A stretch of 24,654 nt of DNA from a virus (taxonomy: Duplodnaviria; Heunggongvirae; Uroviricota; Caudoviricetes): positions 1 through 24,654 of the IMG/VR virus record IMGVR_UViG_3300045988_113752; one strand, given 5' to 3'. How positions within the stretch are numbered: position 1 is the stretch's first letter; each line of letters starts with the position of its first letter. The translations under genes were made by a program, and so were the position numbers. The notes below the pieces were generated by a model. That model was not told the origin of the DNA. It was given only the letters and a program-made list of their open reading frames with translations, and did no database searches. Positions 3 through 5,618 of the stretch are shown here, piece after piece.

Positions 3-332
3 GTTGATGCTTATCCGAAGATTCTGGCAGGTGTTCAGCAGCGCCAGGCAGAAGCCTGGCAGAAAACAACCGAGCAGTGGGCTGCGGATGTAAAAGCTGA
101 CAAAGAAATCGGTGGCGACAAGTTGATTTCTAACCTTAGCGCCGCACAGCGTGCGCTTGACCAGTTCGGGACACCTGAACTCAAAGAATATCTGAACACC
201 ACCGGGCTGGGTAATCACCCTGATCTGGTCAAAACGTTCGTGAAAATCGGAAAGGCGATGTCTGAAGATGGCATGGTCACCGGTGGTAATGAAGGCCAGC
301 GTAGTGCGGCCGAAGTGCTCTATGGCAAATAA
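3..332 (+). CDS. Scaffolding-like protein, C-terminal fragment (gene continues upstream of the window)
   Basis: Frame is open from position 3 to the TAA at 330-332, so the listed 123..332 ORF is the tail of a longer gene. It sits directly upstream of the capsid gene and is charged and Ala/Gln/Lys-rich. It ends in SAAEVLYGK, a motif shared with the ORF at 2219..2542. Confidence 0.45.
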   Translation, partial: VDAYPKILAGVQQRQAEAWQKTTEQWAADVKADKEIGGDKLISNLSAAQRALDQFGTPELKEYLNTTGLGNHPDLVKTFVKIGKAMSEDGMVTGGNEGQRSAAEVLYGK

Positions 333-340
333 GAGAGGAA

Positions 341-1333
341 ATGACAATGGCTGTTAAAGGCTTAACTGCGCTAACGCTGGCTGACTGGGGTAAGCGCGTC
401 GATCCAAACGGGAAAGTCGATAAGATTATCGAGCTTCTCGGTCAAACTAACCCGATCCTTCAGGATATGCCTTTTGTCGAAGGGAACCTTCCTACCGGAC
501 ACCGAACCACCATTCGTTCTGGTTTACCTTCAGCTACCTGGCGTTTGCTGAACTATGGCGTACAGCCAAGCAAATCAACCACAGTGCAGGTAACCGATTC
601 CGTTGGCATGCTGGAAACCTATGCTGAAGTCGATAAGTCACTGGCTGATCTGAACGGCAATACCGCTGAATTCCGCCTGTCTGAAGACCGCGCATTTATT
701 GAAGCGATGAATCAGCAGATGGCGCAGACGCTGTTTTATGGTGATTCCAGCGTTAACCCTCAGCAGTTTATGGGACTGTCCTCCCGCTATTCCAGCCTGT
801 CTGCGGGTAATGCTCAGAACATCATTGATGCTGGTGGCACGGGTACAGATAACACCTCAATCTGGTTAGTGGTGTGGGGCGAAAACACCGTGCATGGCAT
901 CTTCCCGAAAGGGCAGAAGGCTGGCATCCAGATGGAAGATAAAGGCCAGGTGACACTGGAAGATGCGAATGGCGGCAAGTACGAAGGCTACCGTACCCAT
1001 TACAAATGGGACAACGGACTTGCTCTGCGTGACTGGCGTTATGTTGTTCGCATTGCAAACATCGATGTCAGCAATCTTTCAGAACCTTCCTCTGCCGCAA
1101 ATATTGCGAAGTTGATGGTTAAAGCACTGCATCGCATTCCAAATCGTGGCATGGGTCGCCCGGTGTTCTACATGAACCGCACTGTAGGCCAGGCTCTTGA
1201 TCTGCAATCTCTGGAGAAAACATCTCTGGCGATCAGCGTAAAAGAGACAGAAGGCGAGTGGTGGACTTCATTCCGTGGTGTACCAATCCGTGAAACTGAT
1301 GCGCTTCTGGAAACAGAAGCCCGCGTGGTGTAA
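341..1333 (+). CDS. Major capsid protein (putative)
   Basis: 330-aa ORF with RBS agagagga 2-9 nt upstream of ATG 341. It follows the scaffold-like gene and precedes a hairpin. Size and position fit a major capsid protein; the fold assignment is inferred, not verified. Confidence 0.65.
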   Translation: MTMAVKGLTALTLADWGKRVDPNGKVDKIIELLGQTNPILQDMPFVEGNLPTGHRTTIRSGLPSATWRLLNYGVQPSKSTTVQVTDSVGMLETYAEVDKSLADLNGNTAEFRLSEDRAFIEAMNQQMAQTLFYGDSSVNPQQFMGLSSRYSSLSAGNAQNIIDAGGTGTDNTSIWLVVWGENTVHGIFPKGQKAGIQMEDKGQVTLEDANGGKYEGYRTHYKWDNGLALRDWRYVVRIANIDVSNLSEPSSAANIAKLMVKALHRIPNRGMGRPVFYMNRTVGQALDLQSLEKTSLAISVKETEGEWWTSFRGVPIRETDALLETEARVV

Positions 1334-1349
1334 CGCCTGTTATTAACCT

Positions 1350-1369
1350 GTGGGTCGTAACAGACCCAC
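1350..1369 (+). promoter_or_regulatory. Stem-loop after the capsid gene (GTGGGTC-gtaaca-GACCCAC), no U-tract
   Basis: Perfect 7-bp stem with 6-nt loop, 17 nt after the capsid stop. Not followed by a T-run, so more likely an RNA stability or processing element than an intrinsic terminator. Confidence 0.35.
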
Positions 1370-1384
1370 TAATGGAGAAAGAAG

Positions 1385-1822
1385 ATGATCACCGACAAAC
1401 TGTTGATGTTCTCCGAAGCTCAGGCGGTTACGAATACCGCGGCTTCTACTGACGTAATCGATCTCGGTCCAATTGACGGAAAACGTCGTGATATCGGCGT
1501 GGGTTACCCGCTTGAGTTTTGGGCGCTGGTTAACACAGCCGCCGCGGCAAGCGGTGATGCAACTGTAAACATCCAGTTGCAGACGAGTGAGAATAACAGC
1601 TCATGGACCACTATTTATGATAGTGGCGCACTGGCAAAGACCGCCCTGACAGCAGGTAAACGAGTTGTTTCTGCAAAGGTGCCTGCCGGTGTTCAGCGAT
1701 ATCTGCGTGTTAACTACTCCGTCGCAACTGGCCCACTAACGGCTGGCGAATTCACTGCTGGTATCAGTCTTGATGTTGATGCCAATACGCCGTATCCGAT
1801 CCGCTCAAAAGTAACTGGTTAA
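1385..1822 (+). CDS. Hypothetical virion protein (possible capsid decoration/head protein)
   Basis: 145-aa ORF with RBS ggagaaag upstream of the ATG. Location immediately after the capsid gene. Function inferred from position only. Confidence 0.5.
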   Translation: MITDKLLMFSEAQAVTNTAASTDVIDLGPIDGKRRDIGVGYPLEFWALVNTAAAASGDATVNIQLQTSENNSSWTTIYDSGALAKTALTAGKRVVSAKVPAGVQRYLRVNYSVATGPLTAGEFTAGISLDVDANTPYPIRSKVTG

Positions 1823-1832
1823 GGTGATATCG

Positions 1833-2168
1833 ATGTCAGGTGAGAAACCAAGATACCGCGTTCTGCGCCTCTCTCATATCCATAACACTCTGTGGCCGGA
1901 GGGGGCAGAAATCGAATACGAAGGTGAGCCCGGTAGCGCACTGGAACCTGTTAACGATGCAGCCAGACAGGCAAAAGCAAAAATTGCAGGAAAGGTGTCA
2001 ATGGCAGCAACCAGCACCAAAATCATCAACGATGTGTCAGATGATGGTGAACTGGATAAGCTCCGTGAAGAGTACGAATTGCTCTTTAACGAGAAGCCAC
2101 ACCATAACGCCAAAGCCGAAACGCTCCGCGAGAAGATCGCAGATAAGCGTAAAGAACTGGGCGTGTAA
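1833..2168 (+). CDS. Hypothetical protein (head module)
   Basis: The track ORF starts at GTG 1824; the first ATG is at 1833, with aaggtga upstream. Charged, Lys/Glu-rich 111-aa product. Followed by a terminator. Confidence 0.5.
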   Translation: MSGEKPRYRVLRLSHIHNTLWPEGAEIEYEGEPGSALEPVNDAARQAKAKIAGKVSMAATSTKIINDVSDDGELDKLREEYELLFNEKPHHNAKAETLREKIADKRKELGV

Positions 2169-2184
2169 GCCTCGCGGATCAGAC

Positions 2185-2206
2185 AAGGGGCTTCGGCCCC
2201 TTTATT
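2185..2206 (+). terminator. Rho-independent terminator (aaGGGGC-ttcg-GCCCCtt then TTTATT)
   Basis: GC-rich 5-7 bp stem with TTCG tetraloop followed by a T-rich run, downstream of the head genes. Confidence 0.55.
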
Positions 2207-2218
2207 GCAGGAGTGTAT

Positions 2219-2542
2219 ATGGAACTCGTAAACCTCAAAACCGGCACTGACAGCTACCAGGATGAGAGCGGAGAAACCAGAACTCGCGATGAATACCCGT
2301 GGGGGCTGTGCATCACTCTTAATAACGACACATTGAATAAGCTGAAGGCGCAACCTCAGGGCGTCGGAACAGAAGTGATGATAACTGCAAAGGCTGTTAT
2401 TCGAGGCCTGTCTGCCAGAGAAACTGACGATGGTGTTAATCGCAGCGCCGATCTGCAGATCACTGATATGGCGATCGCTCCTGTTTCCGGGGATGTAGAA
2501 AAATCAGCGGCTGAAACCCTGTACGGCAATGGGGGTGAGTAA
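2219..2542 (+). CDS. Hypothetical protein with scaffold-like C-terminal motif (SAAETLYG)
   Basis: The track ORF starts at GTG 2213; ATG at 2219 has gcaggag upstream. Its C-terminus (EKSAAETLYGNGGE) resembles the scaffold C-terminus (QRSAAEVLYGK) at protein level but not at DNA level. Confidence 0.5.
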   Translation: MELVNLKTGTDSYQDESGETRTRDEYPWGLCITLNNDTLNKLKAQPQGVGTEVMITAKAVIRGLSARETDDGVNRSADLQITDMAIAPVSGDVEKSAAETLYGNGGE

Positions 2543-3147
2543 TGGCCTCTGTAGTAGAGATCTGCAATCGTGCGCTGTCCAATATTGGCAATAGCCGCAG
2601 CATTAACAGCCTGACGGAAGCCAGCAAGGAAGCGGGGGAATGTTCGCTGCACTTTGAGGCCTGCCGTGATGCTGTGCTTTCTGATTTTGACTGGAACTTT
2701 GCTACCAAACGCGTGGCGCTTGCAGATACGAACAATCCACCGCCTGACTGGGAATATGCGTACCAGTACCCGTCCGATTGTCTGCGCATTACTGAAATTA
2801 TGCTTCCTGGTGTACGCAATCCAACAGCAGCAATGCGCGTTCAGTACGAAGTTGGTGCAGACACCAACGGAACAGGAAAGTTGATCTACACAGACCAGCC
2901 GCAGGCATGGCTCAAGTATGTATCTCGCGTTACAGATGTGAACATGTTTGATGCCATTTTTATGGAGGCGTTGGCCTGGCGTCTTGCGGCAGCTATTAAC
3001 ATGGCGCTGACTGGGAATGCAGACCTCGGTACGTTTGCCCTCAATATGTACAATCGCGTGATTCTTAGTGCTGGCTCGCATAGCCAGAATGAATCACAGG
3101 AACCACTGCCACCGGTTGACGAGTTTACCATTGCGAGGTTGTCCTGA
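2542..3147 (+). CDS. Tail tubular protein A-like (gp11-like adaptor), putative
   Basis: 201 aa; start overlaps the previous stop (TAATG). Immediately precedes a large gp12-like gene. Size and position match T7-type tail tubular protein A. Confidence 0.45.
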   Translation: MASVVEICNRALSNIGNSRSINSLTEASKEAGECSLHFEACRDAVLSDFDWNFATKRVALADTNNPPPDWEYAYQYPSDCLRITEIMLPGVRNPTAAMRVQYEVGADTNGTGKLIYTDQPQAWLKYVSRVTDVNMFDAIFMEALAWRLAAAINMALTGNADLGTFALNMYNRVILSAGSHSQNESQEPLPPVDEFTIARLS

Positions 3148-5618
3148 TGGCTATCAGTTGGATCCAGCCCAGCTTTGCCGGTGGTGAGATTGGACCGTCG
3201 TTGTACGGTCGTATCGACATGGCGAAGTACCAGGTGGCATTGCGCAAGTGCGATAACTTTATCGTGCGGCAGTATGGCGGCGTTGAGAATCGACCTGGTA
3301 CGCGTTTTGTCGGTGCCGCCAAATACCCAAATCGGAAATGCCGCCTGATCCCGTTCCAGTTCTCGACGGTTCAGACTTATGCTCTGGAGTTCGGACACCA
3401 GTACATGCGCGTTATCAAAGATGGTGCGTTGGTGCTGAACAGCAGCAATGTTATTTATGAAATTGCCACGCCATATACTGAAGCCGATCTGTTCCGAATT
3501 AAATTCACGCAAAGCGCCGACGTGCTTACGCTGGTTCACCCGGCATACCCGCCGAAAGAGTTGCGTCGCTATGCGCATGACAACTGGCAACTGGTTGATG
3601 TGGTAACGAAGAACGGGCCATTTGAAGATATCAATATTGACGAGTCAGTGACGGTTTATGCCAGCGCCAGCACCGGGACAATTACGTTAACGGCAAGCGC
3701 CTCTATTTTTGGCGCGGAGCAGGTAGGCAAATTGTTCTATCTGGAACAGCCAGCAGTGGATTCAGTGCCGGTATGGGAAACCAGTAAGAGTACGTCGATT
3801 GGCGATATTCGCCGTGCAGACAGTAACTACTATCGCGCCGTTACAGCAGGCAAAACTGGTACTTTGCGCCCTTCGCATACAGAAGGCACATCATGGGATG
3901 GCTGGGGCGGATCCGGTGATGATGATACTGGCATTGAGTGGGAGTATCTGCACAGTGGGTTTGGCATTGCCCGTATCACTGCTGTAAACGGCACTACTGC
4001 AACTGCCGAGGTGATTTCCTATATCCCTTCGCAGGTCGTTGGCGAGGATAATGCCAGCTATAAATGGGCTAAATATGCCTGGAACAGTGTTAATGGTTAT
4101 CCTGGCACTGTTGTTTATTATCAACAACGTCTTTACTTCGCCGCATCGACTGCGTTTCCTCAGACTATCTGGGCCAGCCGTACCGGGGATTATAAGGATT
4201 TTGGCAAAAGCAATCCTACGCAGGATAACGACAGAATTATCTACACCTATGCCGGGCGTCAGGTTAATGAGATCCGCCACCTGATTGATGTCGGTTCGCT
4301 GGTGGCACTGACTTCCGGAGGTGAGTACGTCATCACCGGCGACCAGAACAAAGTGTTAACCCCATCATCATTTGCATTCAGCTCTCAGGGATCAAATGGC
4401 TCGAGCAATGTCCCACCAATTGCCGTGGCGAATATTGCTCTGTTCGTCCAGGAGAAAGGCAGTGTTGTCCGTGATCTGGCCTACTCATTCGATGTTGACG
4501 GCTATCAGGGGAACGACCTGACCATCCTTGCCAATCATCTTTTTCAGAAGCACAGCATTGTTGACTGGTGCTTCTCTATTGTCCCTTACTCCAGCGCCTT
4601 CTGCATTCGTGATGACGGTAAATTACTGGTGATGACCTATTTGCGTGATCAGCAGGTTTTTGCATGGGCACCACAATCCAGTACCGGAAAATATGAAAGC
4701 ACATGCAGTATCAGCGAAGGAAATGAAGATGCGGTGTATTTCGTCGTTAACCGAACCGTTAACGGGCAAACAGTGAGATACATCGAGCGACTGTCCAGCC
4801 GTTTATTTACCAGCGATGAAGATGCTTTCTTTGTTGATTCTGGCCTTAGCTATGATGGAAGAAATACGTCTGACAGAACGATGACCATCACTGGTGGTTC
4901 TGGCGAATGGGATTATCGCGCGGAATATACAATCAGTGTTTCTGGTGGTGCGTACTTCACCAGTAGTGATGTCGGCGCGCAACTACAGTTCCCTTATGTC
5001 GGAACTGATCCTGATACTGGCGATGAAGTGTCAAAAGAATTACGTTGCGACATTATTTCTGTAACCAGCAATACCGCTGTAGTGGTTCGCGCTAACAGGA
5101 ACGTCCCGCCATCCCTCAGGAATGTGGCCACCACGAACTGGCAGATGGCGCGCCGGACATTTGGAGGCCTGTCTCATCTTGAAGGCCAGACCGTAAACAT
5201 TCTCTCTGATGCGAACGTGGAGCCACAGAAAGTGGTTTCCGGAGGTGCCGTCACGCTGGAATCACCGGGAGCTGTTGTGCACATCGGCCTGCCAATAACT
5301 GCTGAATTCGAAACACTGGATATCAACATTAACGGACAGGAAACGCTGCTGGACAAAAAACAGGTGATCCCGTCCGTTACTCTGGTTGTGAATGCCAGTC
5401 GCGGCATCTGGGCGACTACGCCCGGCGGTAAATGGTACGAATATCCACAGCGTGAATTCGAGTTCTACGATGATCCTGTTGATGATGCTACCGGAAAAGT
5501 AGAAGTGAAACTGGACAGTAACTGGGGCAAAAACGGACGTGTAAAAATCCGTCAGCTTGATCCGTTGCCGCTGTCTGTTCTTGCCGTTATTCCTCGCCTT
5601 ACTGTTGGGGGATTCTGA
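3147..5618 (+). CDS. Tail tubular protein B-like (gp12-like nozzle), putative
   Basis: 823 aa; start overlaps the previous stop (TGATG). The N-terminal pattern (GGEIGPSLYGRID...RKCDNF...RPGTRF) resembles the T7 gp12 family as I recall it. Size matches. Confidence 0.55.
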   Translation: MAISWIQPSFAGGEIGPSLYGRIDMAKYQVALRKCDNFIVRQYGGVENRPGTRFVGAAKYPNRKCRLIPFQFSTVQTYALEFGHQYMRVIKDGALVLNSSNVIYEIATPYTEADLFRIKFTQSADVLTLVHPAYPPKELRRYAHDNWQLVDVVTKNGPFEDINIDESVTVYASASTGTITLTASASIFGAEQVGKLFYLEQPAVDSVPVWETSKSTSIGDIRRADSNYYRAVTAGKTGTLRPSHTEGTSWDGWGGSGDDDTGIEWEYLHSGFGIARITAVNGTTATAEVISYIPSQVVGEDNASYKWAKYAWNSVNGYPGTVVYYQQRLYFAASTAFPQTIWASRTGDYKDFGKSNPTQDNDRIIYTYAGRQVNEIRHLIDVGSLVALTSGGEYVITGDQNKVLTPSSFAFSSQGSNGSSNVPPIAVANIALFVQEKGSVVRDLAYSFDVDGYQGNDLTILANHLFQKHSIVDWCFSIVPYSSAFCIRDDGKLLVMTYLRDQQVFAWAPQSSTGKYESTCSISEGNEDAVYFVVNRTVNGQTVRYIERLSSRLFTSDEDAFFVDSGLSYDGRNTSDRTMTITGGSGEWDYRAEYTISVSGGAYFTSSDVGAQLQFPYVGTDPDTGDEVSKELRCDIISVTSNTAVVVRANRNVPPSLRNVATTNWQMARRTFGGLSHLEGQTVNILSDANVEPQKVVSGGAVTLESPGAVVHIGLPITAEFETLDININGQETLLDKKQVIPSVTLVVNASRGIWATTPGGKWYEYPQREFEFYDDPVDDATGKVEVKLDSNWGKNGRVKIRQLDPLPLSVLAVIPRLTVGGF

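Follow-up and report, generated by a model that had tools for sequence, protein, structure and literature searches.

The window considered here, the whole 24,654-nucleotide stretch of DNA that was analyzed (IMG/VR virus record IMGVR_UViG_3300045988_113752, positions 1 to 24,654; Caudoviricetes), encodes two head-module proteins that end in nearly the same short peptide. One is a scaffold-like protein, whose gene lies directly upstream of that for the major capsid protein (MCP), and the other is a 107-amino-acid (107-aa) protein that is, by sequence, a homologue of gp10 of Salmonella phage epsilon15. The tails of the two proteins resemble each other in every one of 21 phage lineages, from five or more bacterial phyla, and they change together and follow the type of the MCP. 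On balance, these comparisons favor a reading in which both tails dock on the MCP at the site used by the scaffold.

The window belongs to the genus Uetakevirus and is ~98% identical to Escherichia phage phiV10. Its first 6 kb are 98–99% identical to phiV10, TL-2011b, PAS61 and their relatives and about 77% identical, in parts, to epsilon15. The features that concern the two tails are the following:

3..332, plus strand: what looks like a gp6-type scaffolding protein, its C-terminal 109 codons and stop, with the N-terminus beyond the left edge of the window; the translation matches the C-terminal part of phiV10 p09 with 100% identity.
270..299, plus strand: Gly-rich variable tether of the scaffold, GMVTGGNEGQ, variable in 120 close homologues with the flanks fixed, and predicted to be disordered.
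300..329, plus strand: C-terminal tail of the scaffold, RSAAEVLYGK (short helix and LYG hook), conserved in homologues.
2219..2542, plus strand: gp10-like 107-aa open reading frame (ORF), with ATG at 2219 and AGGAG five bases upstream; Pfam PF21628.
2219..2470, plus strand: beta-rich core of the gp10-like protein, residues 1–84, with the invariant YPWGL and LQITDM motifs, supported by PF21628, the AlphaFold2 (AF2) model and the invariant columns.
2471..2500, plus strand: variable tether AIAPVSGDVE of the gp10-like protein, which in homologues is hypervariable both in length and in sequence and is modeled with low confidence.
2501..2527, plus strand: C-terminal tail of the gp10-like protein, KSAAETLYG, residues 95–103, the peptide it has in common with the scaffold.
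2528..2542, plus strand: acidic, Gly-containing end NGGE, then the stop codon, in overlap with the ATG that starts the following gene (TAATG).

The gp10-like protein ends in ...DVEKSAAETLYGNGGE and the scaffold ORF in ...NEGQRSAAEVLYGK, or at longer extent ...GQRSAAEVLYGK. Both proteins have the same layout, a variable tether followed by K/R-S-A-A-E-x-L-Y-G, and the stretch in common, (R/K)SAAE(V/T)LYG, is identical at 7 of 9 residues, which confirms the claim of an earlier, sequence-only reading that the two proteins have a peptide in common at the protein level. BLASTP of one protein against the other aligned the tail stretch and nothing else (7/10 identical, E = 0.019 for a single comparison). 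At the DNA level 15 of the 27 tail-coding bases are identical; for Ser one gene has AGT where the other has TCA, and there are synonymous differences in the codons for Ala, Leu and Tyr. The differing codons rule out a DNA repeat, as the same reading had held, or a recent gene conversion as the source of the match, and since the differences are synonymous, selection acts on the peptide. The pattern [AST]x[VTAIM][LFM]Y[GPDS], required to lie no more than 16 residues from the C-terminus, is matched by the scaffold and the gp10-like protein alone among the 286 stop-to-stop ORFs of the window, and by the same two alone among the 706 of the complete phiV10 genome. The pattern scan found no internal copies in the real genes of the window and phiV10, and the gp10-like C-terminus matches that of its cognate scaffold and of no other protein.

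Assignment of the 107-aa ORF to the gp10-like family is based on the PF21628 profile (173.6 bits, cut-off 27), which aligns residues 5–101 with profile positions 1–98 of 98, on a match to phrog_825 over the full length, and on a match to the sequence of PDB 3J40 chain N, which is epsilon15 gp10, with E = 2e-21. The conserved YP(W/Y)GL and LQITD(M/L) motifs and the C-terminal L-Y tail of the family are all present. A profile search of 1.84 billion cluster representatives (50% identity) found 3,495 family members at E <= 1e-3. The invariant columns are Y26, P27, W28, G29 and L30, then Q80, I81, T82 and D83, and finally Y102 in the tail. Tyr102 does not vary in the 46 close members or in the 42 diverse ones and is as conserved as the residues of the core fold; the diverse set has no more than five invariant columns, namely four in the beta core and the tail Tyr. 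The conservation in homologues on which the sequence-only reading had staked its idea of a capsid-targeting signal is therefore present. Across the family the tail consensus is K-[SD]-A-A-[DEK]-x-L-Y-G, and [LFMIV]Y occurs within the last 16 residues of 121 of 143 full-length representatives (85%), the remainder having mostly L-F or a longer extension. Between LQITDM and the tail, length and sequence are both free to vary. The xLYG tail is duplicated in tandem in two representatives (P0248 and P0343), ...ATMLYGNGSENSRIDGLSNALYGGS and ...AAKGLYGEDGATESSQAPGIGSAIADALYS, a pattern to be expected of a modular docking peptide. A search of the literature on Bbp20, capsid staple proteins, the epsilon15 scaffold and procapsid, and CP2 ORF12 found nothing on the gp10-like family or its tail.

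The AF2 model of the gp10-like protein, made from a 46-sequence alignment, features a beta-rich core with a predicted local distance difference test score (pLDDT) of 80–90 over residues 31–90, including a long beta-hairpin at 53–88. The tether that follows has a pLDDT below 50 at residues 92–94 and a mean of 51 over 91–100, and a short predicted helix, residues 97–102, stands directly before Y102-G103. The scaffold fragment is modeled as all-helical with low confidence, and its end shows the same arrangement: a tether at 91–101, a short helix at 102–106, and LYGK. The scaffold ending QR(S/T)AAEV(L/I)YG is found in all 120 of the closest scaffold homologues, and the form x-[LFM]-Y-x is kept in 21 of 21 lineages.

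Loci for comparison between lineages were taken from one-genome-per-species contigs, annotated phages and IMG/VR, and the tails were extracted by profile hidden Markov models. The IMG/VR locus search was seeded with a 10-sequence alignment and yielded 13 useful loci, a 42-sequence alignment being too diverse as a seed; a first scan of viral contigs gave 100%-identical prophages only. Representative pairs of tails are listed here:

Window: scaffold RSAAEVLYG; gp10-like KSAAETLYG.
epsilon15: scaffold ...DLISAFYPKK; gp10 ...ELKDAFYPDGEDD (LKDAFYPDG); the common core is AFYP.
BPP-1: Bbp18 scaffold ARRLYAASNMNP (RLYAASNMNP); Bbp20 gp10-like AQRLYGASSMSA (RLYGASSMSA).
BcepC6B: gp07 scaffold ARAAKLYDKS; gp06 gp10-like QRAAKFYANTPTT (QRAAKFYA).
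Xylella/Xanthomonas phage Usme: scaffold NRLYPDM; gp10-like ARMYADDPSMKD.
Planctomycete prophage (L099): scaffold AEVLYPGQS; gp10-like FQVMYPGSGE.
Metagenomic locus (L118): scaffold GADAKRLYPNSNMN; gp10-like GADPKSLYPNSGMT.

Between epsilon15 and phiV10 both tails have changed, and in the same way. With the invariant Tyr left out of the score, tail similarity in 15 non-redundant lineages has a mean BLOSUM score of 18.2 within genomes and 5.6 across genomes, and the observed within-genome value was reached in 0 of 50,000 permutations (p <= 2e-5). When every ORF of a locus was compared with its scaffold tail (20 independent lineages, 2,202 ORFs in total), the gp10-like tail ranked first in 18 of the lineages, and no third protein family with a scaffold-type tail was found in this set. 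The tail match is thus conserved in homologues and co-varies with the scaffold tail. The small proteins of the gp3 type were considered as a third bearer of the tail and rejected, as epsilon15 and phiV10 have an identical ending, KTLLGQ, in these proteins, which shows no co-variation with the tail of the scaffold.

These small proteins show a conserved C-terminal peptide of their own. In the relatives, small proteins encoded upstream of the portal gene end in K-x-x-LGQ, LGM or LGS; the set includes epsilon15 gp3, phiV10 p06, BPP-1 Bbp22, BcepC6B gp04 and two ORFs of Usme (L001 1011..1217; L100 3357..3563; L101 2831..3238; L102 2831..3058; L103 1935..2135 and 2140..2409). Those of epsilon15, phiV10 and Usme begin with MC.., which is lipobox-like.

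The comparison of epsilon15 with phiV10 also indicates which partner the tails follow. The two phages are similar on both sides of a contiguous divergent block, with 80% identity in the portal, 65% in gp5, about 75% in the scaffold body, 85% in gp11 and 88% in gp12. Within the block identity is 43% for the MCP, 32% for gp8, 40% for gp9 and 41% for gp10, and the scaffold tail is completely different. The left edge of the block lies in the scaffold tether and the right edge at the gp10 stop, an arrangement that, on sequence comparison, is a natural tail swap that has traveled with the coat protein. The converse case is an Advenella prophage (L089), in which the bodies of the scaffold and gp10 have diverged from those of phiV10 (54% and 49% identity), the MCP is conserved (78%), and the phiV10-type tails are retained. 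Over 19 lineages, tail similarity is correlated with MCP identity with a Mantel r of 0.60 (p = 0.0002), compared with 0.36 for the portal, 0.33 for the scaffold body and 0.34 for the gp10 body. For gp5 the correlation is 0.41 in all available pairs and 0.21 in pairs with every protein present; for gp8 the respective values are 0.28 and 0.40. The partial Mantel r for the MCP is about 0.54 (p < 0.001) when the portal, scaffold body or gp10 body is controlled for, and the reverse partial correlations of these three, with the MCP controlled, are not significant. By these results the type of tail tracks the coat protein and not the portal, the scaffold body or the gp10 body.

A different partner in the head module, such as the portal, the Bbp19-like gp5, or the cement protein gp8 or gp9, could in principle be the docking site of the common tail, for example at the portal vertex. 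In its favor, BPP-1, BcepC6B, Caulobacter phages and numerous metagenomic relatives have the gp10-like gene directly past the portal gene, scaffolds elsewhere among phages make portal contacts as well, and the epsilon15/phiV10 mosaic block that contains the tails also takes in gp8 and gp9. The weaker correlations for the portal, gp5 and gp8 and the loss of significance for the portal once the MCP is controlled count against such a partner, as do the high identity of the epsilon15 and phiV10 portals while their tails differ completely and the position of gp8 on the outside of the shell; docking on one of these proteins is considered unlikely.

In the reading preferred here, one short linear docking motif would be present twice, as the last ~10 residues of the scaffold and of the gp10-like protein. 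It would consist of a short amphipathic helix (SAAExL) that ends in an invariant Tyr hook (L-Y-G/P) and is carried on a flexible, variable tether. Both tails would bind the same site on the MCP, and the likeliest place for it is the docking region of scaffold C-termini on the inside of the procapsid shell. The scaffold tail would drive assembly of the shell, and the gp10-like tail would recruit its protein into the assembling procapsid, sharing scaffold sites or competing for them. The sequence-only reading had proposed that the peptide is a capsid-targeting signal, by which the 107-aa protein could be packaged as internal cargo or compete with the scaffold. The idea of a functional coat-docking peptide gains support from the conservation, the co-variation and the tracking of the coat protein, and the reading as a whole is borne out in part.

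Similar and co-varying peptides would also result if the tails bound each other, as a homotypic motif by which the gp10-like protein caps or bridges scaffold C-termini and regulates oligomerization or release. The two kinds of protein are similarly acidic, with a median isoelectric point (pI) of 4.5 for gp10-like proteins and 4.6 for scaffolds, and this similarity was counted in favor of such pairing. A peptide of 6–9 residues on a floppy tether, however, is a weak module for self-association, known scaffold C-termini dock on coat proteins, and homotypic contacts do not predict that tail type follows the MCP independently of scaffold-body and gp10-body identity, so that direct pairing of the tails is improbable. 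Recognition by a host factor, as a C-terminal protease degron or chaperone tag that, for example, clears both proteins after assembly, has the least chance of the explanations weighed. Such a role would suit a short motif at the extreme C-terminus with a hydrophobic/aromatic core that is conserved across very different hosts. The motif is unlike ssrA-like LAA or MuA-like ClpX tags, however, and within genomes its lineage-specific flanks vary together; they follow the MCP of the phage even where the hosts are close relatives (epsilon15 in Salmonella, phiV10 in E. coli).

The remaining genes of this part of the window bear on the location of the gp10-like protein. Their order is that of epsilon15, namely scaffold, MCP, cement, gp9-like, 107-aa ORF, gp11, gp12 and internal virion proteins, with the following features:

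341..1333, plus strand, probable start ATG at 347: MCP, of the epsilon15 gp7/BPP-1 Bbp17 family; Pfam PF20911, 497 bits.
1385..1822, plus strand: Bbp16-like cement protein, the epsilon15 gp8 homologue, 145 aa; Pfam PF21190, 159 bits.
1833..2168, plus strand: gp9-like small protein, phrog_590, within the mosaic block that travels with the MCP.
2185..2206, plus strand: terminator-like hairpin AAGGGGC-TTCG-GCCCCTT followed by TTTATT, with a 7-bp stem on folding.
2542..3147, plus strand: gp11-like adaptor (tubular tail A-like), phrog_394, with its start coupled to the stop of the 107-aa ORF and located outside the mosaic block.
3147..5618: nozzle gp12.

An inverted repeat, GTGGGTC-GTAACA-GACCCAC, is located at 1347..1366 on the plus strand, directly past the MCP stop codon, and has no T-run. 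This may form an mRNA-stabilizing hairpin after the most highly expressed gene. The hairpin at 2185..2206 was not reported by a simple consensus terminator scan, and the epsilon15 record has a rho-independent terminator annotated at the matching position. This hairpin would lower expression of the gp10-like and tail genes relative to the capsid genes, which argues against a 1:1 stoichiometry of the gp10-like protein with the MCP.

The epsilon15 gp10 protein has been described as a capsid staple. The 4.5 Å model of epsilon15 (PDB 3J40) has chain N built with the gp10 sequence, and because of this PF21628 bears the names "capsid staple protein" and "major coat protein-like". Hryc & Baker 2022 (PMC9207676) determined that an AF2 model of the 111-aa gp10 fits the staple density with a map-model correlation coefficient (CC) of 0.10, that a 130-aa protein fits with a CC of 0.61, rising to 0.81 after refinement, and judged the original assignment probably wrong. 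The 130-aa protein is epsilon15 gp8. Its homologue in BPP-1, the cement protein Bbp16, has a structure solved at 3.5 Å and occupies the same capsid position, and the gp8 homologue of the window, the 145-aa ORF, is probably the true external staple. The reassignment of the staple density to gp8 therefore leaves gp10 without an assigned place in the virion. A 2026 preprint on the CP2-like phage PhiXacm4-11 reports a 3.16 Å shell with seven MCP and seven cement proteins per asymmetric unit. PhiXacm4-11 gp18 (CP2 ORF12) is a gp10-like protein, and since the phage encodes it and yet its shell is fully explained by MCP and cement, a role as external staple is unlikely. The labels of PF21628 are probably an inherited mis-assignment.

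If gp10 were an external staple or decoration protein after all, the likeness of its tail to that of the scaffold would be incidental, and the database label, taken literally, would conflict with a place inside the capsid. That assignment is carried by the 3J40 model and the Pfam and NCBI names that follow it, is repeated in a 2025 paper, and agrees with epsilon15 virion proteomics, in which gp10 was reported in particles, although a secondary description (PMC9207676) terms it "putative". The AF2 model of the gp10-like protein lacks the eight-stranded jellyroll of Bbp16-type cement or staple proteins, and a structure search matched it to neither 3J40 chain N nor 3J4U nor any other solved structure, so that a clear sequence homologue of the deposited chain is predicted to have a fold unlike the deposited model. 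The poor fit of the 111-aa model to the density, the Bbp16 cement domain of gp8, the composition of the BPP-1 and PhiXacm4-11 shells from MCP and cement only, and the hairpin upstream of the gp10-like gene point the same way, and an incidental match would show no co-variation in 21 lineages. The external staple is accordingly held to be very improbable.

Docking of the gp10-like tail on the inside of the coat would place its body there as well. Because the motifs of the beta domain are near-invariant and the domain is near-universally conserved, a morphogenetic or internal structural role is suggested, rather than that of a variable host-directed effector. The domain may have an internal structural role, may regulate the occupancy or release of the scaffold, or may be ejected with the DNA; the acidity of the protein argues against DNA binding. 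A more far-reaching proposal, and a tentative one, is that PF21628 is the universal internal partner of epsilon15/BPP-1-type capsids, loaded through a portable tag, AAxxLYG, in imitation of the coat-docking tail of the scaffold. This would be a phage-native equivalent of the encapsulin cargo-loading peptide, kept by co-evolution of the scaffold tail, the gp10 tail and the coat.

Several points weigh against docking of both tails on the MCP. What designates the MCP as the partner is co-evolution in about 20 lineages, and the pairs in the Mantel tests, drawn from about 19, are not independent. The gp8 and gp9 genes share the mosaic block of the MCP, so both proteins remain candidate partners. 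AF2 confidence is low for both tails (pLDDT about 35–50). The acidity of the gp10-like protein, like that of scaffolds, favors expulsion during DNA packaging over retention, which is awkward with its reported presence in virions. In addition, gp10 is still presented as the staple in one paper of 2025.

The scaffold ORF, which sits between gp5/portal and MCP, and its homologues (for example L002 2137..2832) are named "protease", "peptidase" or "endoprotease" in the records. Searches by Pfam, NCBIfam and PDB sequence found no peptidase signature in the ORF, and BPP-1 capsid proteins are reported to be uncleaved. The protein has a low-complexity, acidic N-terminus rich in Pro, Glu and Lys and a helical body. 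Its position upstream of the MCP, acidic composition and helical prediction, the last of low confidence, would fit the scaffold class, and mature shells of BPP-1 and PhiXacm4-11 consist of MCP and cement. The ORF thus looks like a scaffolding protein, and, from what its sequence contains, the protease or peptidase label is probably wrong.

Besides its location past the portal gene, the gp10-like gene is found before the adaptor in phages of the epsilon15 type and, in Xanthomonas phages, directly past the large terminase. An IMG/VR contig (L116; 3300020000_000026) adds a fourth position, adjoining ejection/core proteins: there the gene, at 3981..4304 on the plus strand, lies between a nozzle gene (phrog_376) and T7_gp14-like internal virion protein genes. 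Two fusions of the gp10-like protein with ClpP (P0021 and P0117) were considered as natural protease-plus-tail fusions and rejected. They are reciprocal chimeras on short ENA contigs, joined at a "QITDMAI" microhomology, with ClpP of the Firmicute type, and are most likely metagenome assembly artifacts. A 39-kb phage with a gp10-like gene in its structural module, Limnohabitans phage DC33 (PQ492659.1; L106), is filed under Inoviridae, the filamentous ssDNA phages, which looks like a taxonomy error.

For epsilon15 gp10, which has been modeled for more than 10 years as an external staple, the scaffold-like tail predicts both a docking place, the site of the scaffold on the coat's inner face, and a route to it. 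If correct, this would explain where the protein sits after its removal from the outer shell, and the 10-residue tag would be a handle for loading foreign cargo into BPP-1 or epsilon15-type capsids. The pairing of the tails is ancient and widespread, occurring in phages of Proteobacteria, Acidobacteria and Planctomycetes. The annotation of PF21628 as "capsid staple" or "major coat protein-like" and of the scaffold as "protease" or "peptidase" probably needs correction.

The pairing also represents a new way to keep a common tail, as two unrelated genes of one phage are matched by co-evolution with the coat and not by nesting or by satellite mimicry. Lambda C/Nu3, Mu I/Z, P2 gpO and herpesvirus UL26/UL26.5 are protease/scaffold pairs, nested or overlapping, with one coat-binding C-terminus in common, and the HK97 prohead protease has a C-terminal capsid-targeting tail. 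Like these pairs, the two proteins of the window would be head-interior proteins targeted to the shell by the same C-terminal segment. In the known pairs, however, the same DNA is read or one protein is involved, whereas here the genes are separate, use different codons, and include no protease.

The encapsulin cargo-loading peptides are short C-terminal peptides on a flexible linker, by which otherwise unrelated proteins are brought to an HK97-fold shell on its lumenal face. The gp10-like tail is similarly modular and is occasionally duplicated, as in the two tandem cases. Encapsulins differ in being non-viral, in the type of their motifs and in having no scaffold. The internal proteins of T4 carry an N-terminal capsid-targeting sequence that targets the scaffold core and is cleaved by the prohead protease. 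The gp10-like protein would likewise be a small protein delivered to the prohead by a short terminal peptide, but the T4 proteins are basic and variable and the gp10-like protein is acidic and highly conserved.

The closest parallel in design is that of phage 80alpha and its satellite SaPI1. The C-terminal "helix-and-hook" (RIIK motif) of the 80alpha scaffold, gp46, binds the coat N-arm, and SaPI1 CpmB has the same motif and competes for binding (Dearborn et al. 2017, PMC5644958). In both systems a second small protein carries the C-terminal peptide of the scaffold, with a short amphipathic helix, predicted in the present case, and a terminal hook on a chain that is otherwise disordered or unresolved. 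CpmB, however, is a parasitic satellite protein that redirects capsid size, whereas the scaffold and gp10-like genes are in the same phage and have been co-inherited across thousands of lineages. The tail has no sequence homology to the RIIK helix-and-hook, as AAxxLYG is unrelated to RIIK, and the body of the gp10-like protein is a beta domain, not a helical dimer. The tail system would thus be an analogue of 80alpha/CpmB and not a relative.

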